Source: TPA_inf: Saccharomyces
Taxonomy: Eukaryota
DNA: 64,000 nucleotides
Assembly (NCBI GenBank): GCA_000146045.2
Contig: BK006937.2
Span: forward strand, 32,001 to 96,000
Direction of reading: 5' to 3'
Shown in pieces: positions 5,617-58,769 of the stretch. Within the stretch, counting starts at the first letter, position 1; the number at the start of each line of letters is the position of its first letter. The notes beneath the pieces are model-generated. The model was not told where the DNA came from. It did not search any database and saw nothing but the letters and a program-made list of their open reading frames with translations. A program made the position numbers and the translations under genes.

Positions 5617-5835
5617 TACAACAATATTAATAATAAGTAATAAAAAGGTGAATCGTAACCTTAACGGCATTGATTGCATGTAGTTTTAATAATAAAGTGT
5701 AGAATAATAAATATAAAATTTCAAAGTCATCAGAAATAAAAATTGAATAGACATATACATATAGAAATTACTTCTATCATTTAAATACATATATATACAT
5801 ACATGTATACGTGTATACTTGTACTTGTGAAGGAC

Positions 5836-6801
5836 TCAATAGTTGTATTCGTTTGGTTTTTGACCAGAAGTGTTTGGGAAACCACATTCCAATAAGATAT
5901 CGTTAATCAATTCAGGTTTTTCAGTAATCTTGGAGAAAACTTCATCATTTTTGGTTAAGATCATACCACAATAACCTGTGGAGTTGAAACCTATCTTCAT
6001 TTCATCAGAAAAGGCCTTCGAGCGTGGAACGACACAGATCCATTCCTTGGTTAACATAAGATTGTAGGATTTCTTTAGTTCTGGATTTTCGTTCAACCAG
6101 TCCTGGAAAAAGGTCAAAGCTCTTTGCAATATGGAGATGTAACACATAGCTAATAGGTCTTCATCAACAGTTTCTTCAGACTCCGGCATTGGCAAGACAA
6201 AATGAGCGAACGAGACTTTAGCATCTTGCAAAGGTTCAGTATTGAAAGTTGGTAGGAAATGTTCTTTACCATTACATAGTCTATCTTGGAAAGTGACGAA
6301 CTTTTCAGGCATTTGCAGAATTTGCAAATGTTTGTGGTCCAATGAAGAACCACTGGCTGGACCAGAATTGTAAAAGACCATGTGTCTCTTGTCGGATTCT
6401 TCATTGTCCAAGGCACACAGCAACTTATAAGCAGTCAATAAATCGGTTGGGGTCAAGGCATCAGTTTGATGTTGGTATTCGTTAGTTACCAATAAAGTGT
6501 GTTCAGGGATTACAGGGAATTTGTTTAATAGCAATTTATACGCTTTGTTATCGGCACCACCAAATTCTGGGATAACCGTTAATTCTTCCTCAGGTTTGCC
6601 TAGTGGATCCTCTCCTTCTGGAGTTTGGCCACGCTCTGGCTTTTCGATCAGACTTGGCATGTGACTAATCAAGTATGGCATGCTGGTTTTTGGGTCCTTT
6701 GTTTTCGTTGTTTCAGTCTGGATAAATTTTAAGTTACCATTATCGAAGGCACTTTTGTACTTGTCACTAATTAAAGATGCAATGTCAGCGGGGATACTCA
6801 T
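5836..6801 (-). CDS. APA1: APA1 (YCL050C) diadenosine tetraphosphate (Ap4A) phosphorylase I
   Basis: 321-aa ORF with the HIT-like ATP adenylyltransferase fold sequence. Length and position match APA1. Confidence 0.9.
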   Translation of the reverse strand: MSIPADIASLISDKYKSAFDNGNLKFIQTETTKTKDPKTSMPYLISHMPSLIEKPERGQTPEGEDPLGKPEEELTVIPEFGGADNKAYKLLLNKFPVIPEHTLLVTNEYQHQTDALTPTDLLTAYKLLCALDNEESDKRHMVFYNSGPASGSSLDHKHLQILQMPEKFVTFQDRLCNGKEHFLPTFNTEPLQDAKVSFAHFVLPMPESEETVDEDLLAMCYISILQRALTFFQDWLNENPELKKSYNLMLTKEWICVVPRSKAFSDEMKIGFNSTGYCGMILTKNDEVFSKITEKPELINDILLECGFPNTSGQKPNEYNY

Positions 6802-7580
6802 TTTTATTTTAATTTTTACTTTTCTGTTTGTTCTAAAATCTATCTAAACTGGCTTTCAAGATCAATCTATTGTCTTTTAAGGTAAACTTTAAATTGGAAA
6901 TAATAGTAATGTTAGTTCCTTCATTTTAACCTTGTATTGTATTTCCTTTGCGTGATGAAAAAAAAACTGAAAAAGAGAAAAATAAGAAAATCTTCTAGAA
7001 CGTTCCGAAACAGGACACTTAGCACACAAATACAGAATAGGAAAGTAAAAGGCAATATATGAATGCAGTGCTTGTAACTGGTGCTTGTATCCAAGAATAG
7101 CTTCTTGCTGTAGGTTATGGGAATATCGTGTAAGCTGGGGTGACTTTTGAGCTATTCGCGACGCCCGACGCCGTAATAACTACTTTCGACAGACCACTTA
7201 TGACAGTATTTCAGGCCGCTCTTATAAAATGACATGTTAACAAACAGTTCTGATTATTCGCCTTTTGACAGGACGATAATGTAAATAGTTGTGGTAGTAT
7301 CATTCAGGTATGTAACTGTTTACTTTGTATCGCTTGAAAAAAATAAGCATTTCAGAGCCTTCTTTGGAGCTCAAGTGGATTGAGGCCACAGCAAGACCGG
7401 CCAGTTTGAATGCTCAACTCTTCAAAAGAAATTCCTCAAATATGTCCAGTTTCATGTACTGTCCGGTGTGATTTATTATTTTTTATTTACTTTGTAGTTC
7501 TTAAAGCTAAGATTTTTTTCTTTGATAAATTCTTGTTTTCATATCCTAAAATTAAAGGGAAAATAAACAATACATAACAA

Positions 7581-7591
7581 AACATATAAAA
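7581..7591 (-). promoter_or_regulatory. Candidate ARS consensus (TTTTATATGTT, 10/11 match to WTTTAYRTTTW); proposed ARS305 A element
   Basis: 10/11 ACS match on the bottom strand, inside the 985-bp AT-rich APA1-YCL049C intergenic region where ARS305 maps in S288C. The exact A element is not remembered with certainty. Confidence 0.3.
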
Positions 7592-7785
7592 ACCAACACA
7601 ATAAAAAAAAGGATCAAATACTCATTAAAGTAACTTACACGGGGGCTAAAAACGGAGTTTGATGAATATTCACAAGATAAAAATCATATGTATGTTTCTG
7701 ATATATCGATATACAATCAAACACTTTCAAGAATTTGTTTGTAGACTTTTTGCTAGAGACCTCATCAAAGTGCTACCAACTAAGA

Positions 7786-8724
7786 TCAACTTATACTTCT
7801 TTTAGAGAAAATTTTTTTCAATGTACTCCAAAGAGATTTAGATCCTGTCTCTTCCTCTTCCTCTTCCTCGAAAGTCAAAGAAAAATCAGAGTCTCCCTGC
7901 TTATTCAGGCGGAGAGGCTCTAGGGTAGTTGCGTTTCTCTCATTGGGACACTGAACCTCATTTTCCAACATTTTGGTCATGTAAGAGGCGACAGGCTCAT
8001 CGCAGGTGGGTGCATCAACATGGTAGTACCTGGACCAAGCGCTACATTGAGTCCCTCCTGGATAAACACCGCTACAATATTGTCTTTGGACGTTTGCCCA
8101 AACCATATCTTTTGAATACCAAAGCTGGACCACATTGTATGGCCTAATCATTGGTGCTACCATAATACTGGATTGGGAAACAGTCTGGTTAATTTTTTTC
8201 AACCAATTTTTCTTATCTAGCAATGATTTAATAAACCTGAAATCTAAATTGTCTTCGTTAGCGTCTGTGTCATAATCTACAATTGAGTACTGTGACGTCC
8301 AATTATATGGCACCGAGATGGGGAATCTGTCCGGTGTTTCGTCGCTGTTATCCTTCTCCTCCCTCCAAATGCAGTCAGAGGCAGGTGCCCATTCGGTTCG
8401 CCAGTCTCCGTTATTTACTACTTGGTACTGTTCCCAATCGTAATACGTTTCCTCTGGGTTGAAGATACTTGCTCTGCTCTTGACATTGCCCATAGCCACA
8501 CCACGAGAAACATCGTGGAAGATTACGGAGCTGTTTACGATAGCAGGAGCAATGGATTTGACGAATGACACTTGATAAAAGTCTTTGGTCGAAAATACAG
8601 TATCAACGCCGTCGTGGGACTCGACCCCTGGTAGAAGAAGCAGAGCATCTAGATCAACGGTAGATGCTGCAGAGGTCAAAGCCACAAAGAGGGAAGATGC
8701 AGTTACGAGGTATTTACTAAACAT
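7786..8724 (-). CDS. YCL049C, uncharacterised protein with a predicted N-terminal signal peptide
   Basis: 312-aa ORF starting with a hydrophobic signal-like N-terminus (MFSKYLVTASSLFVALTSAAS). Length matches YCL049C. Confidence 0.8.
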   Translation of the reverse strand: MFSKYLVTASSLFVALTSAASTVDLDALLLLPGVESHDGVDTVFSTKDFYQVSFVKSIAPAIVNSSVIFHDVSRGVAMGNVKSRASIFNPEETYYDWEQYQVVNNGDWRTEWAPASDCIWREEKDNSDETPDRFPISVPYNWTSQYSIVDYDTDANEDNLDFRFIKSLLDKKNWLKKINQTVSQSSIMVAPMIRPYNVVQLWYSKDMVWANVQRQYCSGVYPGGTQCSAWSRYYHVDAPTCDEPVASYMTKMLENEVQCPNERNATTLEPLRLNKQGDSDFSLTFEEEEEEETGSKSLWSTLKKIFSKRSIS

Positions 8725-9487
8725 TGGTTCGAAGTGATTACAGATTTTTCTCTCTTGAACCCTGGAATTGCAATAGCTTGGTTCCTATTGGGACCGGACC
8801 CTCTTGCGTAAAGTATATATTTAGAAGCAGCTATTTAAATCTGAATGCAAGACGAAAAAAAGCTCGTTTATAGGAGAAAAATACCAAAAAAAGGAAAACC
8901 ATACACATTCGGGTATCCCAGCTTTGCTTGCAAAATCAATCGATGAGCAAGACAAACAGGGCCAGCTGATGCATATGTTTTGTGTTGCTTTCCTACGATC
9001 AGCTAATGCGAGTGTTATAAATATTCCCCTAGTTTTCTTCTCCTCCTTTATGTAACAATAACTTGTGGACTTCCCCAACATAAGACTAAAAGCAAAGGGA
9101 TAACAAGGGATTTATCTTATTCCATCCCTTTGCCTAGCGCACTGTTACGCAGCTGATCTTATCAACAAGTGTGGTTCTTGCCTCTAAGATTTACATTGCC
9201 TTTTCCCAAAGGGAAGGTGGGACAAAACTCATTTTCCCTAAGGGGAAACGTAAGATACCCTTTAGGGAAGATAAGGGAAGTTAGTAGATTGACGACGTAA
9301 ATCTGTGATGAGATGAAAAAAAAAGATTAGCATCTATATAAGAAAGTACATAACCTCCATTTAAGTTGAAAAAAATTTGTATGTAATGTCTTTTCTTCCT
9401 CTTTTCTTTATTTCATTCTCACCGCTAAATCGATAACGGCTAAAACAATTAAAGCTCCCTTTTCAAACCTTATACTTCCGTTAAATA

Positions 9488-12622: not shown

Positions 12623-14905
12623 CTATTTAATTAGCCATTGGGATTTCAACTTCTTGTTTGAAACAGAAGGACGGATAAAATACGTGATCACCAACAAGAC
12701 GAATATAGTAATAAGCAATTTACCCTTTTCGAAAGTAGGACTCATTAAATCAAATTGGCCCGAAGGTGTGATCCTTGTACAAAATACATCAAGGCCTAGA
12801 TCACATATAATGCTTGTGGATTCCAGATTGGTTGGGATGGAGATCAACTGCGAATCGGATCCTGGCAATAGATTTCTGAAATGAGTGATAATGAAATTAT
12901 CATTAATTGGGATAACTGGCGTGTATGGGGTAGCCATAAACTCTTTTTTCTTATCCTTGGCCATTTCTTCTGCTGGTTTACCTCTTGCATTCAATAAAAG
13001 CTTTGGTATGTAGGTGATTTGTCCATTTTCTAATTCCATAACGATTGCCTTTGTGGTAATATCATCCGTTGTCTTGGAAATGGACATTGTTTTGATAATC
13101 TCGGGAAAAATGAATTGTTTAGTTTGAAATTGAGGTTTGTTAATGTGTCCAGTCAATGGATCATAAGAAAAATTGTCGCTTGAGTTAGACAAACGCTCAT
13201 CTGGGGTTAGTGACTCATATAATTCCACCACTACTAACTTTTGTTCTGGAACAGGTTCAGAACTGAAATAGGAATAAACGACCCAATATTCACCGAAAAC
13301 AATATCCATTGGAAACCTAAAATCCGGAGAATCCTTGTGCTCTTGGGTAATGAGGATTTCTCCTGTAATGGTATCAATTAAGTTAAAAGTGATTGTATGA
13401 TGTTCTTCATTAGCGATCAGATAAGCCGCTAGGTTGGGGTACAAATATTTATAAAGAACCGATTTGTCACCTAGTGTAATACCAAGAGTGTTTAGGTTTG
13501 TTGTTTCCCTCTTGCTATATGCCACCATTTTCTCTTTCGAATTTACGGCTTTTTTCCAAGTTTGTTTTACCGTATCGTTTTCGATTATGTAGCCATAAAT
13601 GCCATTCGTGTCATGCTCTGTGACGAATATGTGGGAACTAGAATGGTTGTTGGCAACTATTGGTACATCCGTATTCTTGCCGGGATTCAATTTGAACAGT
13701 AAATGATCCTTATCCTCAAACTTAATCAGATACTGGTGATCATGTTCATTCAGCCTAATAACGGAATCAACAGTTTTCCTTTCAGATAGGGGGGATCTTG
13801 ATTTGATAATCGGTTGATCTTTAGTAACTTCAATTGTCAAATAATGCCCATCATGCGAAAAAACAACAAGTTCGTCATGGTTTTTATCCGTCCAGAACAT
13901 TTTGACGCCCTGATCAATTTCTAAATCGAGTTTCCAGATAAGTTGGCCCTTATTGACCATATCAAGGCCGCCGATAAAGCCATCATGCGTCAAAACAATT
14001 AAGATTTTGGCGAATCCGAACTTCAAATCTGATACCGTGGTATCCTTAGCGTCTAGAGCTAGGAGTTTAGTGAAGACACGTCCTGGTGAGAATTGGTTTT
14101 CTTTCAATAAGTTGATAAGGCGATTCCAATTAGTTGTCAATCTAAGCCAGTAAGCATTCCAAAGCGAATTTGAATCAAGTTCCGCTTTCATATCTTTGTT
14201 CAACTCCACATCCCTAGAATCGAAGACGTCCAATACAGCATAGTCTACCACGTTAGTCAACCATTCATCTCTTTGCCAAACGGGGATCAATTCTGTGCCA
14301 TTGGCAGAGAATCCCATATATTGGGTATCATTAACGTTCAACACTAACGCCAGGGGATCTTCACGATGAAAATATTCCACTTTATTGAACCCTTGAGGTA
14401 ACTCCAATTTCCATTCTGCCAGTTTTGACTGCTCATCGAGAATATGTAGTTCATTGTTCTTAATAGATACTTGATCGTTTAAATATGAGGATTGAGGTAA
14501 AATGGTCGTAGAAGGGGCATTATCTACGCCTTCCTCTAGTAAAAACCAATCGTGTAAATCATATTTCTGCCAATGGTTGCTTGAAGAGTTCACACAAACC
14601 ATTGCGTTATGGTCATTACTATCCAGTTGAATCTCATCAATGGTAAAGGGTAAAACGTTTCTGAAAAGAATCTGTCCGGAAGAAACGTTAAACGAAGAAA
14701 CTAAGCAGGAAGTTTCGGTAGGGTTCGATAAGATGAGAACCCTGTTGCGGTCTCGAGAATCAGGGATGACTTTCTCCCAAGGACCTAAGTTAGCCAGTTG
14801 CCAATCAGTGATAAATGCATCATCTGAAAAAACGGCTTGGACACAACTCGTGTTTAGGAAGAGTAAAATGAAGACGTACACCAAGTCTGTACACGTTATC
14901 TTCAT
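12623..14905 (-). CDS. EMC1: EMC1 (YCL045C) ER membrane protein complex subunit 1
   Basis: 760-aa ORF with an N-terminal signal peptide, a large lumenal domain and a single C-terminal TM. Length matches EMC1. Confidence 0.9.
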   Translation of the reverse strand: MKITCTDLVYVFILLFLNTSCVQAVFSDDAFITDWQLANLGPWEKVIPDSRDRNRVLILSNPTETSCLVSSFNVSSGQILFRNVLPFTIDEIQLDSNDHNAMVCVNSSSNHWQKYDLHDWFLLEEGVDNAPSTTILPQSSYLNDQVSIKNNELHILDEQSKLAEWKLELPQGFNKVEYFHREDPLALVLNVNDTQYMGFSANGTELIPVWQRDEWLTNVVDYAVLDVFDSRDVELNKDMKAELDSNSLWNAYWLRLTTNWNRLINLLKENQFSPGRVFTKLLALDAKDTTVSDLKFGFAKILIVLTHDGFIGGLDMVNKGQLIWKLDLEIDQGVKMFWTDKNHDELVVFSHDGHYLTIEVTKDQPIIKSRSPLSERKTVDSVIRLNEHDHQYLIKFEDKDHLLFKLNPGKNTDVPIVANNHSSSHIFVTEHDTNGIYGYIIENDTVKQTWKKAVNSKEKMVAYSKRETTNLNTLGITLGDKSVLYKYLYPNLAAYLIANEEHHTITFNLIDTITGEILITQEHKDSPDFRFPMDIVFGEYWVVYSYFSSEPVPEQKLVVVELYESLTPDERLSNSSDNFSYDPLTGHINKPQFQTKQFIFPEIIKTMSISKTTDDITTKAIVMELENGQITYIPKLLLNARGKPAEEMAKDKKKEFMATPYTPVIPINDNFIITHFRNLLPGSDSQLISIPTNLESTSIICDLGLDVFCTRITPSGQFDLMSPTFEKGKLLITIFVLLVITYFIRPSVSNKKLKSQWLIK

Positions 14906-15110
14906 TGCTATGGGGGAAGGGGAGGATGAAAGTGTTGATATGAATGTAGGTATTAGTTATTAATGGAGTGTATATATATATATGTTATTATATATTTGCA
15001 TATATAATATGAAATCCCAGCCATATTTTCTCTGGTAGCCGTCTGAAAAATCACGGTGTACGAAGAAGGATTTAATATACGCACGGTACAACTAAGCAAT
15101 CCGCAAAGAC

Positions 15111-16364
15111 CTAATGTGTCTTTTCATTAGTGAGAGCCTTGGGGGTAGGCCCTGGTAACGGCTGGTCCGTGCTAGTGGGTGTCTTGGTATGGGAGGGCAT
15201 GGTAGTTGGTATGAATTTGATGCTTAGCGAAGTTTCTAAGGCCAAAGTCATCCATGGATCATAAAGCGATCTTATTGTATCGAGATCAATATCTTGCGGG
15301 CCTTTCGTGTCATGGGGCAAAATGACACCTCGGGAGAGTGTGGTGCTGGATCTCTTCTTTACTGGTGCGGAAATGGAATCTCCCGAAGATGCTAAGAAAT
15401 GCAGTCTTTTTTCCACATTTTGTAGATGGAGTTTTTTGGACTCGGAAAGACCTTCAAGGCCAGTAGAAGAAGACTGCGGATTGTGGGATATGGAATTGAT
15501 GAGTTCAATGGAATTTTCTCTAATGTTTCTTTTATTTTGAAAAAACTCGAACATGTCCAAGTGAAATTCCATGCGATTGAGGTACTCGTTGAAAGACATG
15601 GGCTTGTATTCCAAGGGTCCGAACCATTTAATAATGGGATTCTGCGCCTCAACTTGCGCTCTAGCGAGAGCGACGCTTTGTTTGACCTCAGGGATATTTG
15701 TCGAGAGAGGAGTACCGTTCATAGCATCCTTGACTTTTATTTTGGTGGGGTCTATGCCCTCGTGATAATATTTGACAATATTGTTGAAAAACTTCTTGTC
15801 ACGTACGGATTTCATTTCGTCGCACCAGGGGTCGTATTTAAGAAAGTTCAGGCGAGTAAGCTCCAACAGTGACTGAGAAAGTAGCAAAGAGCCAAACAAC
15901 CCCCATAAGAGCTTTCTGACGCTGACGAATCGAGATTGGCGAGGTATGATGGGAGGAGGGGCGAGCACAATGTCACCATGGGTGGTGGAGAAGCGGTTCA
16001 AAGTTGGAAAGTCAGCAATATCCTTTTTGATTTTAGTCTTGCCATTGACAATCATTTCACTGGGTAGTTCGCCAAAGGATAAATCCGAGTGAGTGCCAGT
16101 GGCAATGCGGCGCGGTGGCGGTAGTTTGTAGAGCCTTCTCAGTCTCCAAAGGGCAAAGAAACCCACTGCAGATTGGATAGTGATTAGAGTGTATAGTCCC
16201 GGTAGGTTATCAGGAGCGGGTACGAGCGGACCCCACAGTTTTAAGCCTAAACTTGGCCTTATGTAGAATTTCTTGATATCATTATCATCTTTGTCGTGGT
16301 CATCTTGTGTGTGAGTATGGTCGGTGGAATTGCTATTACCTGATGGAGGAGTAAATACAGCCAT
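15111..16364 (-). CDS. MGR1: MGR1 (YCL044C) mitochondrial i-AAA protease adaptor subunit
   Basis: 417-aa ORF; length and position match MGR1. Confidence 0.8.
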   Translation of the reverse strand: MAVFTPPSGNSNSTDHTHTQDDHDKDDNDIKKFYIRPSLGLKLWGPLVPAPDNLPGLYTLITIQSAVGFFALWRLRRLYKLPPPRRIATGTHSDLSFGELPSEMIVNGKTKIKKDIADFPTLNRFSTTHGDIVLAPPPIIPRQSRFVSVRKLLWGLFGSLLLSQSLLELTRLNFLKYDPWCDEMKSVRDKKFFNNIVKYYHEGIDPTKIKVKDAMNGTPLSTNIPEVKQSVALARAQVEAQNPIIKWFGPLEYKPMSFNEYLNRMEFHLDMFEFFQNKRNIRENSIELINSISHNPQSSSTGLEGLSESKKLHLQNVEKRLHFLASSGDSISAPVKKRSSTTLSRGVILPHDTKGPQDIDLDTIRSLYDPWMTLALETSLSIKFIPTTMPSHTKTPTSTDQPLPGPTPKALTNEKTH

Positions 16365-16652
16365 CTTTTATTACGGTAATTGGAAAAGGAGAGGGAATGG
16401 AGGAGGATGAGATAAGTAGTTTCCTAAGCAGTAAAGCAAGTGTCCACATTTAAGTAAAAGACGATGCCATGCACTTATTATTACTACGTGGTCAATTTTC
16501 TCTTTCCCTAAGGCGTTCGTGCAGTGTGACGAATATAGCGAACAACTATTGTGTTTGAATTTTAACGTTTATCTTTTTATGATTTTTTTAAAAAAACTTC
16601 CTAGAAAATTTCTTATATATCTCTATTTAATGAAAAACCAAAGTGATCAGAA

Positions 16653-18221
16653 TTACAATTCATCGTGAATGGCATCTTCTTCGTCAGCCAATTCAGCGTC
16701 AGCATCGGCTTCCTCAGCAGCTTTTTCCTGGGCTTCTTCGTACAAGGCCTTACCGTCGACGTCGAAGTGACCGTTTTCCTTGATGAAGTCGAATAAAGAG
16801 TCCAAGGATCTTGAACCTTGGTACACAACAGATTCGGACTTCTTACCACCTGGGTATAAGACGATTGTTGGGTAACCTTCAATTACGACGCCTCTGACAT
16901 CGTTTTCAGTGTGGTCTAGTTTAGCAATCAAAACGTCGGATGTGGCGTTGGCGTAGGTATCAGCTAGTTCTTGGTAAGTTGGGGCCAATCTCTTACAGTG
17001 ACCACACCATGGGGCATAGTACAAAACAAGAACGTCCTTCTTTGGGTCGTTGACGATTTCGTCATGGTTCTTACCGACCAATTGGAAGACAGAGGAATCT
17101 TGGTTCTCGAAGATCTCTTGGGACTTCACGATTGGGGAGGCATCACCTTTCAAGAAGTCCTTAACCAAAGATTCAATAGCCTTAGACTCCAACACGATCT
17201 TGTCGCTCAATTCGTCAAACGCCTCTTCAGAGAGTTGAGGCAAACCGTACTTCAAGTCTTCAGTCATGTCGTGGATGGCAAATAGAGGGAATTGTTCCTT
17301 CATGTTCAAGTTGCCGGCGTGTCTGCCGAATTTTCTGGCATCGATGCTAACAAAGTTCATTAGACCTCTGTTCTTTTTGGCCAACTCGGTAAAGAGAGGC
17401 TTGTATTCTTCCAATTCTTCCTCGTCATTGTAGAATAAGTAACCCAAAGGCAAACCGCTTTCGACGTATTGGGCGAAAACGGAACCGTCGATTTCACCAA
17501 AGTAGGGCAAGGCTTCCACTTGCAACCATTTTTCAAAAACATCAGCGTCAGCGATATCGGCTTTCTTACCGTTGTATACTACAGGCTCGTCCATGGCGGA
17601 GGGCAAGTAAATAGAAAGCTTGAAATCATCGTCTGCGTTTTCAGCGGAGACAAAGTCGTAGTCGTTGAAGTGTTTGTTGGCCATGGAGTAAAAGGTGGCG
17701 TTGAAGTCGGCGTCAATCTTACCGGATTGGACGATAACTGGAGTGACAAAAGTCTCGTTAGCAAGGTAAGCTGGTAGATCAGCAACAACGGCGACAGCCG
17801 GTTGGCTTTGCTTGATCATGAATTGGACAATGGCCTCGGCAGTTCTAGGTCCCTCGTAATCGATCGAGTTGTTAACATCGCTGTTTTTGAAAATCTTCAA
17901 GCTTGGGAACCCTGGAATGTTGTGTTCCATACACAGATCCTGGTTTTCAGTACAGTCGATCTGGGCCAAGGTAATGTTTTTCTCAACTAAAGTCTCGGCG
18001 GCTTTAACGTATTCAGGAGCCATGTTCTTACAGTGGCCACACCATGGAGCAAAAAACTCCGCAAGCACCAAGTCGTGCGACTGAATGTACTCATTGAAGG
18101 AGTCGGTGGCCAACTTAACGACAGCGGAGTCTTCAGGGGCCACAGCCTCTTGTTGGGCGAAAACAGAGGAGGCGAGCAGCAGGGAGGACCATGACAGGAC
18201 GGCACCAGCAGAAAACTTCAT
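16653..18221 (-). CDS. PDI1: PDI1 (YCL043C) protein disulfide isomerase
   Basis: 522-aa ORF with a signal peptide, two thioredoxin APWCGHCK active sites, an acidic C-terminus and an HDEL ER-retention signal. Confidence 0.97.
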   Translation of the reverse strand: MKFSAGAVLSWSSLLLASSVFAQQEAVAPEDSAVVKLATDSFNEYIQSHDLVLAEFFAPWCGHCKNMAPEYVKAAETLVEKNITLAQIDCTENQDLCMEHNIPGFPSLKIFKNSDVNNSIDYEGPRTAEAIVQFMIKQSQPAVAVVADLPAYLANETFVTPVIVQSGKIDADFNATFYSMANKHFNDYDFVSAENADDDFKLSIYLPSAMDEPVVYNGKKADIADADVFEKWLQVEALPYFGEIDGSVFAQYVESGLPLGYLFYNDEEELEEYKPLFTELAKKNRGLMNFVSIDARKFGRHAGNLNMKEQFPLFAIHDMTEDLKYGLPQLSEEAFDELSDKIVLESKAIESLVKDFLKGDASPIVKSQEIFENQDSSVFQLVGKNHDEIVNDPKKDVLVLYYAPWCGHCKRLAPTYQELADTYANATSDVLIAKLDHTENDVRGVVIEGYPTIVLYPGGKKSESVVYQGSRSLDSLFDFIKENGHFDVDGKALYEEAQEKAAEEADADAELADEEDAIHDEL

Positions 18222-18318
18222 AACGGGATAGATGTATGTTTTTCTTTATGTAGAGCTTGGCAGCTTTAAAATTACCAATTAGACATGCTGCTTGCAACAA
18301 GAAAATGCACGCGTAACA

Positions 18319-18352
<34 letters not shown>

Positions 18353-18505
18353 CCATACGGGTTTTTCGTTTTGTTGTGGTTGTAACAGCACAACAAAATG
18401 CTACACGGTGGCAAATTGGAAAAAGAGACTAGTGAGAGAAAAGGGAAAAAGAGGCGCCGCCCGACAGGGTAACATATTATCACGTGCAGCCCAGGATAAT
18501 TTTCA

Positions 18506-18522
18506 GGACACGTGTTTCGAAA
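18506..18522. promoter_or_regulatory. UPRE-like element GGACACGTGTTTCGAAA in the PDI1 upstream region; resembles the KAR2 UPRE GGACAGCGTGTCGAAA
   Basis: The element lies about 290 bp upstream of the PDI1 ATG. Its CACGTG core and flanks resemble the Hac1 UPRE-1, and a second CACGTG sits at 18481-18486. Confidence 0.3.
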
Positions 18523-18583
18523 GGTTTGTCGCTCCGAAAAAATCAAAAAAAACAAAAAACGGGAAATAACAATAACGACAAAA

Positions 18584-18943
18584 ATGGAAAAAAAAAAAAT
18601 TTTAGACGCGGCGCTTGCACCCCGCATTATAAGTGGTGTGCCGACGGACGGTCAACCCCTTTCAGGGGGCCCCCTATCTTGGGCGTGGTGTCACACCACG
18701 CTCAAACGGTGGGCACTAATGAAAACGCGCCCATATAAATATCCGCTATCAACAGAACCCCCAACCCCCCCATCAGTGCCCAACTCAGCTTCCGTAAACC
18801 ACAACACCACCACTAATACAACTCTATCATACACAAGATGTCATTCGACGACTTACACAAAGCCACTGAGAGAGCGGTCATCCAGGCCGTGGACCAGATC
18901 TGCGACGATTTCGAGGTTACCCCCGAGAAGCTGGACGAATTAA
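18584..18943 (+). CDS. YCL042W small ORF overlapping the GLK1 promoter and start; doubtful coding status
   Basis: 119-aa ORF from an internal Met of the 143-aa six-frame ORF. It overlaps GLK1 codons 1-35 in another frame and is S/T/P-rich and low-complexity. Confidence 0.3.
   Translation: MEKKKILDAALAPRIISGVPTDGQPLSGGPLSWAWCHTTLKRWALMKTRPYKYPLSTEPPTPPSVPNSASVNHNTTTNTTLSYTRCHSTTYTKPLRERSSRPWTRSATISRLPPRSWTN
18656..18675. promoter_or_regulatory. STRE cluster (CCCCT 18656-60, AGGGG 18664-68, CCCCT 18671-75) upstream of GLK1
   Basis: Three Msn2/4 STRE cores within 20 bp, about 170 bp upstream of the GLK1 ATG. GLK1 is a textbook STRE-driven gene. Confidence 0.55.
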
Positions 18944-20340
18944 CTGCTTACTTCATCGAACAAATGGAAAAAGGTCTAGCTCCACCAAAGGAAGGCCACA
19001 CATTGGCCTCGGACAAAGGTCTTCCTATGATTCCGGCGTTCGTCACCGGGTCACCCAACGGGACGGAGCGCGGTGTTTTACTAGCCGCCGACCTGGGTGG
19101 TACCAATTTCCGTATATGTTCTGTTAACTTGCATGGAGATCATACTTTCTCCATGGAGCAAATGAAGTCCAAGATTCCCGATGATTTGCTAGACGATGAG
19201 AACGTCACATCTGACGACCTGTTTGGGTTTCTAGCACGTCGTACACTGGCCTTTATGAAGAAGTATCACCCGGACGAGTTGGCCAAGGGTAAAGACGCCA
19301 AGCCCATGAAACTGGGGTTCACTTTCTCATACCCTGTAGACCAGACCTCTCTAAACTCCGGGACATTGATCCGTTGGACCAAGGGTTTCCGCATCGCGGA
19401 CACCGTCGGAAAGGATGTCGTGCAATTGTACCAGGAGCAATTAAGCGCTCAGGGTATGCCTATGATCAAGGTTGTTGCATTAACCAACGACACCGTCGGA
19501 ACGTACCTATCGCATTGCTACACGTCCGATAACACGGACTCAATGACGTCCGGAGAAATCTCGGAGCCGGTCATCGGATGTATTTTCGGTACCGGTACCA
19601 ATGGGTGCTATATGGAGGAGATCAACAAGATCACGAAGTTGCCACAGGAGTTGCGTGACAAGTTGATAAAGGAGGGTAAGACACACATGATCATCAATGT
19701 CGAATGGGGGTCCTTCGATAATGAGCTCAAGCACTTGCCTACTACTAAGTATGACGTCGTAATTGACCAGAAACTGTCAACGAACCCGGGATTTCACTTG
19801 TTTGAAAAACGTGTCTCAGGGATGTTCTTGGGTGAGGTGTTGCGTAACATTTTAGTGGACTTGCACTCGCAAGGCTTGCTTTTGCAACAGTACAGGTCCA
19901 AGGAACAACTTCCTCGCCACTTGACTACACCTTTCCAGTTGTCATCCGAAGTGCTGTCGCATATTGAAATTGACGACTCGACAGGTCTACGTGAAACAGA
20001 GTTGTCATTATTACAGAGTCTCAGACTGCCCACCACTCCAACAGAGCGTGTTCAAATTCAAAAATTGGTGCGCGCGATTTCTAGGAGATCTGCGTATTTA
20101 GCCGCCGTGCCGCTTGCCGCGATATTGATCAAGACAAATGCTTTGAACAAGAGATATCATGGTGAAGTCGAGATCGGTTGTGATGGTTCCGTTGTGGAAT
20201 ACTACCCCGGTTTCAGATCTATGCTGAGACACGCCTTAGCCTTGTCACCCTTGGGTGCCGAGGGTGAGAGGAAGGTGCACTTGAAGATTGCCAAGGATGG
20301 TTCCGGAGTGGGTGCCGCCTTGTGTGCGCTTGTAGCATGA
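18838..20340 (+). CDS. GLK1: GLK1 (YCL040W) glucokinase
   Basis: 500-aa hexokinase-family ORF containing the LAADLGGTNFR motif. Confidence 0.95.
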   Translation: MSFDDLHKATERAVIQAVDQICDDFEVTPEKLDELTAYFIEQMEKGLAPPKEGHTLASDKGLPMIPAFVTGSPNGTERGVLLAADLGGTNFRICSVNLHGDHTFSMEQMKSKIPDDLLDDENVTSDDLFGFLARRTLAFMKKYHPDELAKGKDAKPMKLGFTFSYPVDQTSLNSGTLIRWTKGFRIADTVGKDVVQLYQEQLSAQGMPMIKVVALTNDTVGTYLSHCYTSDNTDSMTSGEISEPVIGCIFGTGTNGCYMEEINKITKLPQELRDKLIKEGKTHMIINVEWGSFDNELKHLPTTKYDVVIDQKLSTNPGFHLFEKRVSGMFLGEVLRNILVDLHSQGLLLQQYRSKEQLPRHLTTPFQLSSEVLSHIEIDDSTGLRETELSLLQSLRLPTTPTERVQIQKLVRAISRRSAYLAAVPLAAILIKTNALNKRYHGEVEIGCDGSVVEYYPGFRSMLRHALALSPLGAEGERKVHLKIAKDGSGVGAALCALVA

Positions 20341-50461: not shown

Positions 50462-50533
50462 CTCCGATACGGGGAGTCGAACCCCGGTCTCCACGGTGAA
50501 AGCGTGATGTGATAGCCGTTACACTATATCGGA
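50462..50533 (-). tRNA. tE(UUC): tRNA-Glu (anticodon UUC), tE(UUC)
   Basis: The reverse complement reads TCCGATATAGTGTAACGGCTATCACATCACGCTTTCACCGTGGAGACCGGGGTTCGACTCCCCGTATCGGAG. This is a 72-nt cloverleaf with a GTTCGACTCC T-arm and a TTC anticodon. Confidence 0.95.
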
Positions 50534-50699
50534 TAACAAATTATTAAAATTATTTAATAAAAAGATGAACTAATGGTGTATAAAAACATCATAAAAACTC
50601 AACTCAACTGTTCCAATAAAATCTGCAATTTAAATTAATTATTCTGAAAAAACACGTAAATTGTTGGAATGGAACCCTAAAATATTTCCTCTTTAGTAC

Positions 50700-51036
50700 T
50701 GTTGGAATAGAAATCAACTATCATCTACTAACTAGTATTTACATTACTAGTATATTATCATATACGGTGTTAGAAGATGACGCAAATGATGAGAAATAGT
50801 CATCTAAATTAGTGGAAGCTGAAACGCAAGGATTGATAATGTAATAGGATCAATGAATATAAACATATAAAACGGAATGAGGAATAATCGTAATATTAGT
50901 ATGTAGAAATATAGATTCCATTTTGAGGATTCCTATATCCTCGAGGAGAACTTCTAGTATATTCTGTATACCTAATATTATAGCCTTTATCAACAATGGA
51001 ATCCCAACAATTATCTCAACATTCACCCATTTCTCA
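50700..51036 (+). mobile_element. Solo delta (Ty1-type LTR), 337 bp, flanked by an AGTAC target-site duplication (50695-99 / 51037-41)
   Basis: Runs TGTTGGAATAGAAATCAACTATC...CATTTCTCA with a perfect 5-bp direct repeat on both sides. It encodes the first codons of TYA (MESQQL...). Confidence 0.85.
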
Positions 51037-51054
51037 AGTACTATTCATGTTACT

Positions 51055-51215
51055 TGAGAAATGGGTGAATTTTGAGATAGTTGTTGGGATTCCATTGTTG
51101 ATAAAGGCTAATAATATTAGGTATACAGAATATGCTAGAGGTTCTCCTCGAGCATATAGGAATCCTCAAAATGGAATTAGCATTTCTACATAATAACCTC
51201 AATTCCCTTTTGTGG
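51055..51215 (-). mobile_element. Inverted partial/diverged delta (3' portion), tail-to-tail with the preceding delta; right boundary uncertain (may extend to ~51300)
   Basis: Its reverse complement aligns to the 3' ~150 bp of the 50700-51036 delta with a few mismatches. The sequence diverges beyond ~51200. Confidence 0.55.
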
Positions 51216-51619
51216 ATTCACATATTCTCGATCGGAACTCCTAGCATAGTGCAGACAACACTCACATAGCTCTCCCATTTATCAAGTTGGAATTCACTCC
51301 AAGAAATTTTCTTGCTTCTCTCTTTCCCACAGAAATGAAAAGGAACAGTTTGGCGGCTATTGTTTTAGCCCTTACTTTTTGGACCCTTTGAAAAAATGCC
51401 AAGAATGCGTGACGGTTTCCCTCCATGCTCGAGAACCACAAAAACCCTATGTGGTATTCGATTATGCGACTCACGGCAAATATTTGACTTGTCAAAGTTA
51501 TTCGGGATTTCCTTGAATCCCTGAGAAGTGAAATGGAAAGAATTTAAGGGCATAAATACCTTTCAAGCACCCAGAAGAACAGTAAAATAAAGCAAGGTAC
51601 GTGAAATTAATATTTTTAA

Positions 51620-51997
51620 ATGGTTCTAACCGATGCCGAAGAACTGCGCAGTCCGGTTATAACGTCTGACATGTCCTTTTTTGATTTGGAATCCAACCAC
51701 TCAAGTGACTCTGTTCATTTACTTTGCGAAAAATATACCCACAAATTGCCCATCGAAAGTGAATCGCAAACCACCTTCAGACTGGCACCGACAAAGCAAA
51801 GATTATACAGACAGAGTACTTTATACGTACCGTTAAGTCTCAAGCAAAGGGTTTTCTTATTTACTGAACGGGTAAAGAGTATCTGGGCCGGCTTGCCAAG
51901 ATGCAAACCGAATAAGTATTTCAAAGTTGCATTTGCCTTAGCCGTCCTGACACCATTGGCTATTTGGATATTTTATATTGACTTTCGTGTACATTGA
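51620..51997 (+). CDS. YCL021W-A uncharacterised 125-aa ORF embedded in the delta cluster, with a C-terminal hydrophobic segment
   Basis: Non-repetitive 125-aa ORF whose length matches YCL021W-A; there is no homology evidence here. Confidence 0.4.
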   Translation: MVLTDAEELRSPVITSDMSFFDLESNHSSDSVHLLCEKYTHKLPIESESQTTFRLAPTKQRLYRQSTLYVPLSLKQRVFLFTERVKSIWAGLPRCKPNKYFKVAFALAVLTPLAIWIFYIDFRVH

Positions 51998-52068
51998 TCA
52001 CATCGACTGTTCTATTGGCAAATGAACCACGGGCATTGACTATTTTTCAGGTTACTACTATATATTAT

Positions 52069-52294
52069 TGTTGGAATAAAAATCAACTATCATCTACTAA
52101 CTAGTATTTACGTTACTAGTATATTATCATATACGGTGTTAGAAGATGACGCAAATGATGAGAAATAGTCATCTAAATTAGTGGAAGCTGAAACACAAGG
52201 ATTGATAATGTAATAGGATCAATGAATATTAACATATAAAATGATGATAATAATATTTATAGAATTGTGTAGAATTGCAGATTCCCTTTTATGG
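52069..52294 (+). mobile_element. Truncated delta (5' 226 bp, Ty2-type LTR)
   Basis: Differs at one position from the first 226 bp of the adjacent full delta and ends in ...CCCTTTTATGG. Confidence 0.8.
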
Positions 52295-52626
52295 TGTTGG
52301 AATAAAAATCAACTATCATCTACTAACTAGTATTTACGTTACTAGTATATTATCATATACGGTGTTAGAAGATGACGCAAATGATGAGAAATAGTCATCT
52401 AAATTAGTGGAAGCTGAAACGCAAGGATTGATAATGTAATAGGATCAATGAATATTAACATATAAAATGATGATAATAATATTTATAGAATTGTATAGAA
52501 TTGCAGATTCCCTTTTATGGATTCCTAAATCCTCGAGGAGAACTTCTAGTATATCTACATACCTAATATTATTGCCTTATAAAAAATGGAATCCCAACAA
52601 TTACATCAAAATCCACGTTCTTTTCA
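52295..52626 (+). mobile_element. Solo delta (Ty2-type LTR), 332 bp, flanked by TATGG on both sides
   Basis: Runs TGTTGGAATAAAAATC...CGTTCTTTTCA and is near-identical to the Ty2 LTRs downstream. Confidence 0.85.
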
Positions 52627-52802
52627 TATGGATTCCTAAATCCTCGAGGAGAATTTATAATATAGTCTGTATACATAATATTATAGCTTCTAACGACAAT
52701 GGAATTCTAACAATTATCAAATTGTCCGCCAGTTCCTCAAAAAGATCCATGTATAATCTTCATTATTACAGCCCTCTTGACCTCTAATCATGAATGTTCT
52801 CA
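52627..52802 (+). mobile_element. Diverged delta 3' fragment (176 bp) beginning TATGGATTCCTAAATCC... and ending ...TGTTCTCA
   Basis: It aligns to the distal part of a delta but carries many substitutions and insertions, so it is an older or different LTR variant. Confidence 0.65.
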
Positions 52803-52810
52803 AATAAATC

Positions 52811-53142
52811 TGTTGGAATAAAAATCAACTATCATCTACTAACTAGTATTTACGTTACTAGTATATTATCATATACGGTGTTAGAAGATGACGCAAATGA
52901 TGAGAAATAGTCATCTAAATTAGTGGAAGCTGAAACGCAAGGATTGATAATGTAATAGGATCAATGAATATTAACATATAAAATGATGATAATAATATTT
53001 ATAGAATTGTGTAGAATTGCAGATTCCCTTTTATGGATTCCTAAATCCTCGAGGAGAACTTCTAGTATATCTACATACCTAATATTATTGCCTTATAAAA
53101 AATGGAATCCCAACAATTACATCAAAATCCACGTTCTCTTCA
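52811..53142 (+). repeat. Ty2 5' LTR (332 bp)
   Basis: TGTTGG...TCTTCA. It differs from the 3' LTR at two or more positions (TTATAAAAAATGG vs TTATTAAAAATGG; ACGTTCTC vs ACATTCTC). Confidence 0.9.
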
Positions 53143-54418
53143 TGGTAGCGCCTATGCTTCGGTTACTTCTAAGGAAGTCCCATCAAATCAAGATCCGTTA
53201 GCCGTTTCAGCTTCCAATTTACCGGAATTTGATAGAGATTCCACTAAGGTTAATTCTCAACAAGAGACAACACCTGGGACATCAGCTGTTCCAGAGAACC
53301 ATCATCATGTCTCTCCTCAACCTGCTTCAGTACCACCTCCACAGAATGGACAGTACCAACAGCACGGCATGATGACCCCAAACAAAGCTATGGCCTCTAA
53401 CTGGGCACATTACCAACAACCGTCTATGATGACGTGTTCACATTATCAAACGTCACCTGCGTATTATCAACCGGACCCACACTATCCGTTGCCACAGTAT
53501 ATCCCACCACTGAGTACTTCCTCACCTGATCCAATCGATTCACAGAATCAACACTCTGAAGTACCTCAAGCTGAGACAAAGGTGAGAAATAACGTCTTAC
53601 CACCACACACTTTAACATCAGAAGAAAACTTTTCTACATGGGTTAAATTTTACATCAGATTTTTGAAGAACTCTAATCTCGGTGACATCATTCCAAATGA
53701 CCAGGGTGAAATCAAAAGACAAATGACTTATGAAGAACATGCGTATATATACAATACCTTCCAAGCATTTGCCCCATTTCATTTATTGCCAACATGGGTA
53801 AAACAAATTTTAGAAATTAATTATGCTGACATCCTTACAGTCCTTTGTAAAAGTGTGTCCAAAATGCAAACTAACAATCAAGAATTAAAGGATTGGATAG
53901 CTCTTGCCAACCTTGAGTACGACGGAAGTACATCTGCTGATACATTTGAAATTACAGTCAGTACGATCATTCAGAGGCTAAAAGAAAACAATATCAATGT
54001 TAGCGACAGATTGGCCTGTCAACTAATACTTAAAGGTCTATCCGGTGACTTCAAATACCTACGTAATCAATATCGTACCAAAACGAACATGAAACTTTCC
54101 CAATTATTCGCTGAAATTCAGTTAATATATGACGAAAATAAAATCATGAATCTAAATAAACCGTCCCAATACAAACAACACAGCGAATACAAAAATGTTT
54201 CTCGCACATCTCCAAACACGACTAACACAAAGGTTACAACTCGTAATTATCAGAGAACAAATAGTTCAAAACCAAGAGCAGCAAAAGCTCACAATATTGC
54301 TACATCTAGTAAATTCTCAAGGGTGAACAATGATCACATTAATGAATCAACCGTTTCATCACAATACTTAAGCGATGACAACGAACTTAGTCTTAGGCCA
54401 GCAACAGAAAGAATCTAA
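53102..54418 (+). CDS. TYA: Ty2 TYA (Gag), 438 aa
   Basis: ORF begins inside the 5' LTR with [16 protein letters not shown]...; the length is typical of Ty2 Gag. Confidence 0.9.
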
Positions 54419-57400
54419 GCCAACACACACAATAGACTCGAATGACGAACTACCTGATCACCTTCTTATTGATTCAGGAGCTTCGCAAACGCTTGTCAGA
54501 TCAGCCCATTATTTACACCATGCAACACCCAATTCTGAAATAAACATAGTCGATGCTCAAAAACAAGACATTCCTATAAATGCCATTGGTAATCTTCACT
54601 TCAACTTTCAGAACGGCACCAAAACATCAATAAAAGCACTACACACACCAAACATAGCCTATGATCTATTAAGTTTGAGTGAGCTGGCTAATCAAAATAT
54701 TACTGCCTGCTTTACCAGAAACACTTTAGAAAGATCGGATGGTACAGTCCTAGCTCCCATAGTCAAACATGGAGACTTTTACTGGTTATCTAAAAAATAC
54801 CTAATTCCTTCGCACATTTCAAAGCTAACAATAAACAACGTCAACAAAAGCAAAAGCGTAAATAAATATCCATATCCGTTAATACATCGAATGCTTGGAC
54901 ATGCTAACTTCCGAAGTATTCAGAAGTCTCTTAAGAAGAATGCAGTTACATATTTGAAGGAATCGGATATTGAATGGTCTAACGCTAGCACATATCAATG
55001 TCCTGACTGTCTAATCGGCAAAAGCACGAAACATAGACATGTCAAAGGATCACGACTAAAGTACCAAGAATCATATGAGCCTTTTCAGTACTTGCATACC
55101 GATATATTTGGTCCTGTACATCACTTACCGAAAAGTGCACCTTCTTACTTTATATCGTTTACAGATGAGAAAACCAGATTCCAATGGGTGTACCCATTAC
55201 ACGACCGTCGTGAAGAATCTATCCTCAATGTTTTTACATCGATATTAGCATTTATTAAGAACCAATTCAATGCTCGCGTTCTAGTTATCCAGATGGATCG
55301 TGGCTCCGAGTACACTAACAAAACTCTTCATAAGTTCTTTACGAACAGAGGTATTACTGCATGCTATACAACCACGGCAGATTCTAGAGCACACGGTGTC
55401 GCTGAACGATTAAATCGTACTTTATTAAACGATTGTCGCACACTGCTTCATTGCAGTGGTCTACCAAATCATCTATGGTTCTCAGCAGTCGAATTTTCTA
55501 CTATAATCAGAAATTCATTAGTCTCACCAAAAAACGATAAATCCGCAAGACAACATGCAGGTTTAGCTGGACTGGACATTACTACTATACTACCTTTCGG
55601 TCAACCGGTTATAGTTAACAACCATAATCCCGACTCGAAAATACATCCTCGTGGCATTCCAGGTTACGCCTTACATCCGTCACGAAACTCTTATGGCTAT
55701 ATTATCTATCTTCCATCATTAAAAAAGACAGTAGATACTACCAATTACGTTATATTACAAGACAAGCAATCCAAATTGGACCAATTCAATTATGATACAC
55801 TCACCTTTGATGATGATCTCAATCGTTTAACAGCCCATAACCAATCTTTTATTGAACAAAATGAAACGGAGCAGTCATATGATCAAAATACAGAATCTGA
55901 TCATGACTATCAATCGGAGATTGAAATAAACTCTGATCCTCTAGTGAACGACTTCTCGTCCCAATCAATAAACCCTTTACAATTAGACAAGGAACCAGTC
56001 CAAAAAGTACGTGCACCAAAAGAAGTTGATGCCGACATATCTGAATACAATATTCTTCCATCTCCTGTACGATCTCGTACACCCCATATCATTAATAAAG
56101 AGAGTACCGAAATGGGTGGTACCGTTGAATCAGATACTACTTCACCTAGACACTCGTCTACCTTCACTGCACGAAACCAAAAGCGACCTGGTAGTCCCAA
56201 TGATATGATTGATTTGACCTCACAGGATAGAGTTAATTATGGACTTGAAAACATCAAAACTACACGTTTGGGTGGTACGGAGGAACCATATATTCAACGA
56301 AATAGTGATACAAATATCAAATACAGGACTACAAATAGTACGCCCTCAATAGATGACCGTTCGTCCAACAGTGAATCCACTACTCCCATCATCTCCATAG
56401 AAACAAAGGCTGTATGTGATAATACACCCTCCATTGATACGGATCCGCCAGAATATCGATCTTCTGACCATGCGACTCCTAATATAATGCCTGACAAATC
56501 CTCAAAAAATGTTACGGCTGATTCTATTCTTGACGACCTCCCACTTCCTGACTTAACCCATCAATCTCCTACGGACACTTCTGATGTTTCAAAAGATATT
56601 CCACACATACACTCTCGTCAGACTAATTCCAGTTTGGGTGGTATGGATGATTCTAATGTTCTGACTACTACCAAAAGTAAGAAAAGATCATTAGAAGATA
56701 ATGAAACTGAAATTGAGGTATCCCGAGACACATGGAATAATAAGAATATGAGAAGTCTGGAACCACCAAGATCGAAGAAACGCATAAATTTAATTGCAGC
56801 AATAAAAGGAGTGAAATCGATCAAACCAGTTCGAACGACCTTAAGATATGATGAAGCAATTACTTATAATAAAGACAACAAAGAAAAAGACAGATATGTT
56901 GAAGCTTATCATAAAGAAATTAGCCAACTATTGAAAATGAACACTTGGGATACAAACAAATATTATGATAGAAATGACATAGATCCTAAAAAAGTAATAA
57001 ACTCAATGTTTATATTTAACAAGAAACGTGATGGTACACACAAAGCTAGATTTGTTGCAAGAGGCGACATTCAACACCCCGATACATATGATTCTGATAT
57101 GCAATCCAATACCGTACATCACTATGCACTGATGACGTCACTGTCAATCGCATTAGACAACGACTATTATATCACACAGCTGGACATATCCTCTGCTTAC
57201 TTATATGCTGATATCAAAGAAGAATTATACATAAGACCTCCACCACATTTAGGTTTGAATGATAAATTACTACGTTTGAGAAAATCACTCTATGGTTTGA
57301 AACAAAGTGGTGCAAACTGGTATGAAACCATTAAATCATATTTAATAAATTGTTGCGACATGCAAGAAGTTCGCGGATGGTCATGCGTATTTAAGAATAG

Positions 57401-58415
57401 TCAAGTAACAATTTGCTTATTCGTTGATGATATGATATTATTCAGCAAAGACTTAAATGCAAATAAGAAAATCATAACAACACTCAAGAAACAATACGAT
57501 ACAAAGATAATAAATCTGGGTGAAAGTGATAACGAAATTCAGTACGACATACTTGGATTAGAGATCAAATATCAAAGAAGCAAGTACATGAAATTAGGTA
57601 TGGAAAAATCCTTGACAGAAAAATTACCCAAACTAAACGTACCTTTGAACCCAAAAGGAAAGAAACTTAGAGCTCCAGGTCAACCAGGTCATTATATAGA
57701 CCAGGATGAACTAGAAATAGATGAAGATGAATACAAAGAGAAAGTACATGAAATGCAAAAGTTGATTGGTCTAGCTTCATATGTTGGATATAAATTTAGA
57801 TTTGACTTACTATACTACATCAACACACTTGCTCAACATATACTATTCCCCTCTAGGCAAGTTTTAGACATGACATATGAGTTAATACAATTCATGTGGG
57901 ACACTAGAGATAAACAATTAATATGGCACAAAAACAAACCTACCAAGCCAGATAATAAACTAGTCGCAATAAGCGATGCTTCATATGGTAACCAACCATA
58001 TTACAAGTCACAAATTGGTAACATTTTCCTACTCAACGGAAAAGTGATTGGAGGAAAGTCGACAAAGGCTTCGTTAACATGCACTTCAACTACAGAAGCA
58101 GAAATACACGCAGTCAGTGAAGCTATTCCGCTATTGAATAACCTCAGTCACCTTGTGCAAGAACTTAACAAGAAACCAATTATTAAAGGCTTACTTACTG
58201 ATAGTAGATCAACGATCAGTATAATTAAGTCTACAAATGAAGAGAAATTTAGAAACAGATTTTTTGGCACAAAGGCAATGAGACTTAGAGATGAAGTATC
58301 AGGTAATAATTTATACGTATACTACATCGAGACCAAGAAGAACATTGCTGATGTGATGACAAAACCTCTTCCGATAAAAACATTTAAACTATTAACTAAC
58401 AAATGGATTCATTAG
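53102..58415 (+). CDS. TYB: Ty2 TYA-TYB Gag-Pol fusion (1770 aa) via +1 ribosomal frameshift at CTTAGGC (54392-54398); effectively join(53102..54394, 54396..58415)
   Basis: The frameshift heptamer CUU-AGG-C lies in the 44-bp TYA/TYB overlap. TYB encodes protease, an integrase zinc/DDE region, reverse transcriptase (YxDD-like [10 protein letters not shown]) and RNase H. (5313 nt = 1770 codons + stop.). Confidence 0.85.
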
Positions 58416-58437
58416 ATCTATTACATTATGGGTGGTA

Positions 58438-58769
58438 TGTTGGAATAAAAATCAACTATCATCTACTAACTAGTATTTACGTTACTAGTATATTATCATA
58501 TACGGTGTTAGAAGATGACGCAAATGATGAGAAATAGTCATCTAAATTAGTGGAAGCTGAAACGCAAGGATTGATAATGTAATAGGATCAATGAATATTA
58601 ACATATAAAATGATGATAATAATATTTATAGAATTGTGTAGAATTGCAGATTCCCTTTTATGGATTCCTAAATCCTCGAGGAGAACTTCTAGTATATCTA
58701 CATACCTAATATTATTGCCTTATTAAAAATGGAATCCCAACAATTACATCAAAATCCACATTCTCTTCA
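58438..58769 (+). repeat. Ty2 3' LTR (332 bp)
   Basis: Direct repeat of the 5' LTR, followed by the AAATC duplication. Confidence 0.9.

Follow-up and report, generated by a model that had tools for sequence, protein, structure and literature searches.

Inverted Ty1 LTR sequences upstream of tE(UUC)C on yeast chromosome III: a near-palindrome probably left by two independent Ty integrations

Arrangement of LTR sequences upstream of tE(UUC)C

The window analyzed here is the whole stretch of 64 kb that comprises positions 32001–96000 of Saccharomyces cerevisiae chromosome III, and its positions 50700–51036 and 51055 correspond to SGD coordinates 82,700–83,036 and 83,055. A tRNA-Glu(UUC) gene, which is tE(UUC)C by its chromosome III coordinates, was located by ARAGORN on the minus strand at 50462–50533. 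It was 100% conserved in all 20 related loci (20/20) and is the Pol III-transcribed gene to which the targeting of Ty integration in this region is due. Upstream of it, an intact Ty1 LTR (delta) of 337 bp with the termini TGTTGG...TCTCA occupies 50700–51036 on the plus strand, flanked on both sides by AGTAC (50695–50699 and 51037–51041) as a 5-bp target-site duplication (TSD), just as the first-pass annotation of this DNA had described it. [quoted passage not shown] TG...CA termini, a length in the usual range of ~330–340 bp, the 5-bp TSD and homology to the LTRs of full-length Ty elements all identify it as a delta element. Its identity to the LTRs of the full-length Ty2 in the window (52811–53132 and 58438–58759) was 89.9%.

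After a gap of 18 bp (51037–51054, AGTACTATTCATGTTACT), the intact delta is followed by a second, inverted delta sequence on the minus strand. The first-pass annotation had recognized the 3' end of an inverted delta of ~150 bp or more at this distance, and the blastn alignment resolved it as a truncated delta of 142 bp (51055–51196) that matches positions 197–337 of the intact delta with 92.3% identity over 142 columns and one gap. Beyond 51196, blastn detected no further delta similarity. The two LTRs are arranged tail-to-tail, with the 3' ends of the intact delta and of the fragment facing each other.

Both elements are already annotated at the left edge of a known transposition hot spot. 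The exact match of the coordinates identifies the intact delta as YCLWdelta15, listed at SGD 82,700–83,036 (PMC5741057), and the fragment as YCLCdelta1, listed at 83055 (PMC3937135). The former study mentions an "unannotated Ty1 element replacing YCLWdelta15", and the latter states that "YCLWTy1-1 ... corresponds to YCLWdelta15" in SGD. The left-arm transposition hot spot (LAHS) spans SGD 81,179–92,378 (PMC2996329) and was described by Warmington (1986, as cited in PMC2996329). [quoted passage not shown] The neighboring full-length Ty2 of the window (52811–58769) coincides with YCLWTy2-1 at SGD 84,811–90,769 (PMC5741057). Just upstream of this Ty2, at 52069–52718, lies a cluster in which one delta is split by another: positions 1–225 of the split delta are found at 52069–52290 and positions 228–316 at 52630–52718, and a near-complete delta sits between the two halves (52295–52616), matching delta2a, delta3 and delta2b of SGD. 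In a re-analysis of ChIP-chip data, the YCLCdelta1 probe had the second highest median enrichment of all probes after TEL6R, which the authors tied to the tRNA gene 519 bp away (PMC4124144). Other possible contributors to this signal are cross-hybridization of the repeat and snap-back of the palindrome.

Because the 3' ends of the LTRs face each other, the pair constitutes a quasi-palindrome with arms of 145 nt, 93–95% identity and a loop of 10 nt. Gapped local alignment, repeat search and hairpin folding agreed on a left arm made up of the final 141 nt of the delta and AGTA (50896–51040), an unpaired spacer of 10 nt (51041–51050, CTATTCATGT, 30% GC) and a right arm composed of TACT plus the truncated inverted delta (51051–51196), both arms given on the plus strand. 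The pairing thus continues for 4 bp outside the two LTR ends (AGTA/TACT). The arms of 145 and 146 nt match in 137 of 144 ungapped columns (95%) or, if three 1-nt indels are counted, in 137 of 147 (93%), which is above the ~86% taken as the mark of high-identity inverted arms. This agrees with the inverted repeat of ~150-bp arms and short spacer proposed by the first-pass annotation, and lies above the 50 bp of arm length and 80% identity that it had named as lower bounds for its claim. Seven mismatches and three indels divide the arms into perfect blocks of 20, 8, 30, 22, 5, 12, 24, 2, 0, 11 and 3 bp from the center outward. The arms have a GC content of 32%, and the AT-rich center (30–32% GC) is closed by a perfect inner stem of 20 bp about 512 bp upstream of the tRNA-Glu gene. 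Single-stranded DNA of the region folds as one long hairpin with a predicted free energy of -135.8 kcal/mol, compared with -23.9 ± 3.5 kcal/mol for shuffled sequences (z = -31.9; 0 of 100 shuffles reached as good a value).

Within the 64-kb window this pair is the only long inverted repeat with a short spacer. A short imperfect palindrome at 18295–18376, with arms of 43 nt that are 72% complementary and centered on a (TA)n run, is probably a low-complexity artifact. A genome-wide survey of inverted repeats named the Ty1/Ty2 pair on chromosome VII as the only reverse-orientation Ty/LTR pair within 76 bp (PMC2908449). The chromosome III pair, with LTR ends only 18 bp apart, contradicts this statement and was overlooked by the survey. 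An ORF of 65 aa (50996–51193) opens with the Ty1 Gag N-terminus in the delta and crosses the center of the palindrome into the inverted fragment; it is accidental, and no product of it is on record. Exact-match scans of metagenome contigs yielded no match to the palindrome center or to the left junction.

Alleles of the locus in other assemblies

Other assemblies of this part of chromosome III were found via a 125-aa ORF (51620–51997) and a 1037-aa kinase whose gene ends at 50275. The comparison set of 20 loci covers 19 haplotypes and 18 assemblies; L003 and L011 derive from a duplicate assembly. In 16 of the 19 haplotypes the fragment was present with 98.8–100% identity and with the same truncation point. 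Among the other three, L016 is N-masked but still shows the outer 43 bp of the fragment, joined to unique DNA at the same point; only the inner 39 bp are left in L017, and L014 cannot be read because of N-masking. Wherever the sequence could be read, the partner of the delta consisted of the 142-bp LTR fragment only. Fourteen of the 19 haplotypes contain the fragment alone, without the intact delta, and the fragment is thus the older of the two insertions.

The exact empty site (...CTCTTTAGTACTATTCATGTTACT joined to TGAGAAATGG) with a single AGTAC was found in 11 haplotypes, namely eight of the loci L001–L010 together with L012, L013, L015 and L020, less the L003/L011 duplicate. L017 is a twelfth haplotype in which the AGTAC site is unoccupied. 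The flanks of the empty site in L013 are 100% identical to the window, so that L013 represents the S288C haplotype before the insertion. An occupied AGTAC site was detected in only four assemblies, all of which share the S288C allele of the kinase gene; two of them, L014 and L016, are N-masked across the element and demonstrate the occupancy of the site only. In the other two, L018 (13539–19457) and L019 (13539–19462), a full-length Ty1 of 5,924 bp in plus orientation is inserted between AGTAC flanks. The spacer and the fragment that follow it are 100% identical to the window, and its 3' LTR is identical to the delta of the window to 100% in L019 and to 99.7% in L018. This Ty1 encodes an intact Ty1 Gag of 440 aa.

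The "solo" delta of the reference sequence is the collapsed form of the full-length Ty1 that is present in strains of the S288C background. The 5' and 3' LTRs of this Ty1 are identical over positions 1–317, so that any crossover between the LTRs in this range yields exactly the solo LTR of the reference. The earlier designation as solo delta is therefore appropriate for the reference sequence, but not for S288C-background strains, where the full-length Ty1 is found. The solo and the full-length form give the same palindrome because the truncated partner limits the arm length. In true S288C, the 5.9-kb Ty1 separates the palindrome from tE(UUC)C by ~6 kb. Between the reference and one independent S288C-type assembly the palindrome is identical in every base, and a second one differs at one position.

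The S288C allele of YCLCdelta1 agrees with the intact delta at one base more than the allele of most other strains (92.25% versus 91.55% identity). Homogenization of the fragment by the intact delta was considered and rejected, as the same fragment allele occurs in L008 and L013, both of which lack the delta. Two further observations concern the surroundings of the site. L013 contains a solo LTR that has inserted within another delta in the inverted orientation (14897–15565, TSD ATTAT), which gives an inverted repeat with ~276-bp arms of roughly 90% identity, separated by ~54 bp; S288C is thus not alone in having inverted LTR pairs at the LAHS. In L002 (contig k141_130431), synteny with chromosome III is lost from ~11100 onward, after a delta downstream of the 125-aa ORF, and the contig continues with genes that encode a 793-aa CBM_21 protein, a CPSF73-100_C protein and an enoyl-CoA hydratase-like protein. 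The cause of this break is either chimeric assembly through an LTR or a translocation at the LAHS.

Fragility of the inverted repeat

The first-pass annotation pointed out, rightly, that inverted Ty pairs elsewhere on chromosome III are fragile sites, FS2 being the example (PMC7999016; PMC6267110). Its further claim that the structure described here stalls replication forks, breaks and recombines is plausible in principle but not supported to the extent proposed, considering the 10-nt loop, the 145-bp arms, their divergence and the unchanged sequence of the palindrome. In our estimation, the quasi-palindrome is unlikely to be a genuine fragile site at which a hairpin or cruciform is extruded in normal cells, forks stall, and breaks and rearrangements begin at the left LAHS edge. 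Such a role would be in line with the geometry of the repeat, namely 145-nt arms of 93–95% identity, an AT-rich loop of 10 nt and a predicted hairpin of very high stability, and natural inverted Ty pairs are known as hot spots that act spontaneously or at low Pol alpha. The AT-rich center and the perfect 20-bp inner stem favor nucleation and count against dismissing fragility altogether. Elements of the LAHS including YCLCdelta1 also occur at rearrangement junctions (PMC2996329; PMC3937135; PMC5741057), but in these studies they served as homology partners for breaks induced elsewhere and not as initiators. Solo deltas are over-represented at breakpoints of LOH in general (PMC6267110).

The size of the loop argues against a genuine fragile site. 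In inverted Alu repeats (Alu-IRs) in yeast with 100% identical arms of 320 bp, a spacer of 9 nt already reduced double-strand breaks (DSBs) by 80%, no fork pausing was detectable with spacers of 9, 10 or 12 nt, and attack by MRX/Sae2 was limited to loops of less than 9 nt (PMC8053094). A passage of PMC7999016 cites fork stalling at an Alu-IR with a 12-bp spacer in yeast, in conflict with these results. With 10 nt, the loop described here exceeds the ~8 nt up to which forks are blocked and MRX/Sae2 attacks. The arms of the repeat, limited to 145 nt by the truncation of one partner, have less than half the length of the Alu arms and fall short of the ~320 bp or more of the fragile repeats tested so far, and they contain 10 interruptions. 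The rate of gross chromosomal rearrangements (GCRs) at Alu-IRs decreased ~15-fold at 94% identity and ~58-fold at 86% identity, and a single mismatch near the center already lowered the activity (PMC10164571, which is also the source from which the rules of Lobachev 1998 and 2000 were taken as relayed there). FS1 and FS2 consist of inverted pairs of full-length Ty elements of ~6 kb, whereas one partner of the pair at tE(UUC)C is a fragment of 142 bp; even HS4, with arms of 6 kb, is only ~5-fold above average. The palindrome is unchanged in one independent assembly and altered at one position in another, although stability can be judged to a small extent only from this observation, since no more than two readable assemblies carry it. 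DSB, fork-pause or break data for chromosome III at ~83 kb were not found in the literature searched.

We infer from these comparisons that the near-palindrome would be at most a weak, conditional at-risk motif in unperturbed cells, a claim that depends on rules worked out at a different locus with Alu repeats of 320 bp. Strong constitutive fragility appears improbable. Some activity is nevertheless to be expected and a weak or conditional effect is possible, because an Alu-IR with 94% identity and a 12-bp spacer still caused GCRs at a rate far above the spontaneous level (PMC10164571). In long single-stranded DNA, repeat divergence and spacing matter little (PMC10164571), and the repeat may become recombinogenic only where such DNA forms, for example under replication stress or during extensive resection. 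tRNA genes are reportedly polar fork-pause sites, a finding ascribed to Deshpande and Newlon in 1996. A bolder proposal, which we regard as doubtful, is that the junction of the Ty1-1 3' LTR with YCLCdelta1 constitutes a cryptic, conditional fragile site specific to the S288C lineage. Long single-stranded DNA arising at low Pol alpha, by resection from a distal break or during BIR would then allow the arms to fold back, and this fold-back would initiate inverted duplications or isochromosomes at chromosome III ~83,045. If this were true, some of the rearrangements that have been credited to the LAHS as a passive homology partner would have started at this junction. More generally, fragility of the repeat under replication stress would add an initiating lesion to a region that has so far been seen only as a recombination partner.

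Origin of the near-palindrome and comparison with known systems

The LTRs of the full-length Ty1 in L018 and L019 raise the question whether the hairpin has ever acted in vivo. The 5' and 3' LTRs differ by six substitutions only, which are clustered within 11 nt at positions 318–328, lie 10–20 nt from the LTR end inside or beside the inner stem, and switch the N-terminus of Gag from SNYPHIS (5' LTR) to SQHSPIS (3' LTR type). Rewriting of the last ~20 nt of the 3' LTR from the fragment by quasi-palindrome template switching could account for the confinement of all six differences to 11 nt near the palindrome center and for the identity of the 3' LTR with the fragment at five of the six positions. 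We nevertheless reject this explanation as very unlikely: the tail of the 3' LTR is the canonical Ty1 U5 that encodes the N-terminus of Gag, the same N-terminus occurs in several independent clusters of Ty1 Gag proteins (P0002, P0004, P0006 and P0026) and, with small changes, in other species, and position 321 of the 3' LTR is the canonical C where the fragment has A. No hairpin is needed if the 5' LTR was converted ectopically to the common SNYPH type, which is the simpler explanation of the six differences.

A single event that generated both halves, such as the inverted duplication of one delta end by fold-back or template switching, has a negligible probability and is ruled out by the empty-site alleles and the perfect 5-bp TSD of the intact delta: it would explain the 4 bp of complementarity past the LTR ends, which arise only by chance if the insertions were independent, but AGTA...TACT already exists at the empty site in strains without the intact delta, a complete Ty1 is present in L018 and L019, the arms differ by seven mismatches and three indels, and the fragment occurs alone in 14 of the 19 haplotypes.

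Very probably, the near-palindrome arose as a side effect of two Ty elements integrating independently at one Pol III-targeted hot spot; we infer no function for it and regard it as at most a weak at-risk motif. An old insertion on the minus strand left the 142-bp 3' fragment of a delta, YCLCdelta1, which is now fixed in the species. Much later, and in the S288C lineage only, a Ty1 integrated in the opposite orientation 13 bp from the end of the fragment, duplicating AGTAC. Real S288C-type strains have retained this full-length element of 5.9 kb (YCLWTy1-1), and in the reference it has collapsed to the solo LTR YCLWdelta15 by LTR–LTR recombination.

Further independent insertions at the same tRNA gene indicate that the close spacing of the LTRs reflects re-use of the hot spot. 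L008 carries a full-length Ty1 in minus orientation (3486–9421, TSD CTATT) that is inserted 4 bp from the AGTAC site, and L003 (identical to L011) carries a full-length Ty2 (3379–9336, TSD CAATA) 81–85 bp from the tRNA gene, which is 98.8% identical to the interior of the Ty2 in the window. In L017, a Ty in minus orientation (13589–19552) is inserted inside the fragment, with its left breakpoint 39 bp in. The orientation of the insertions appears to be arbitrary; the one in L008 gives rise to a direct repeat. As a separate observation, the Ty of L017 replaces ~1.65 kb (51094–52739 of the window), a stretch that includes the 125-aa ORF, the delta cluster downstream of it and most of the fragment. 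The insertion site of the window's Ty2 is empty in this haplotype, with 52806–52810 joined to 58770.

The arrangement of YCLWdelta15 and YCLCdelta1 is ordinary and has little importance beyond careful record-keeping. As an example of Ty1 returning to a single Pol III-targeted integration site, the locus is of textbook quality, and its alleles form an unusually clean set: an empty site, a full-length element and a solo LTR. The design of assays and the mapping of reads at 82.7–83.2 kb of chromosome III must allow for a full-length Ty1 in strains of the S288C background; GenBank GU224294 is a sequence that contains YCLWTy1-1. The quasi-palindrome with its 145-nt arms and 10-nt loop is natural in S288C-type strains and absent from most others, and this natural pair of alleles is suited for testing the rules on spacer, length and divergence that were derived from artificial Alu repeats.

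With regard to known systems, YCLWdelta15/YCLWTy1-1 and YCLCdelta1 at the LAHS are the same locus as the one described here, without differences. The LAHS literature treats the two elements as homology partners and not as a palindrome, and in the literature searched we found no discussion of the pair as a palindrome or of breaks at the pair. Clustered and nested Ty LTRs upstream of tRNA genes likewise result from repeated Pol III-proximal integration that leaves solo LTRs and fragments behind, but at tE(UUC)C the orientation and the 18-bp spacing happen to produce an inverted repeat with a short spacer. FS2 on chromosome III and HS3/HS4 on chromosome IV are similar in that closely spaced inverted Ty sequences make intrastrand structures possible. 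Their arms of ~6 kb and spacers of 25–280 bp contrast with the 145-nt arms and 10-nt spacer of the YCLWdelta15/YCLCdelta1 pair, and breakage at FS2 requires low Pol alpha. The Alu quasi-palindromes of the Lobachev laboratory belong to the same class of geometry, with arms of a few hundred bp or less, spacers of 5–12 nt and 86–100% identity. However, the Alu arms have a length of ~320 bp compared to 145 here, and the arms of the delta pair are interrupted by indels in addition to mismatches. Unlike the engineered Alu repeats, the YCLWdelta15/YCLCdelta1 pair resides in its natural context beside a tRNA gene and a Ty1.
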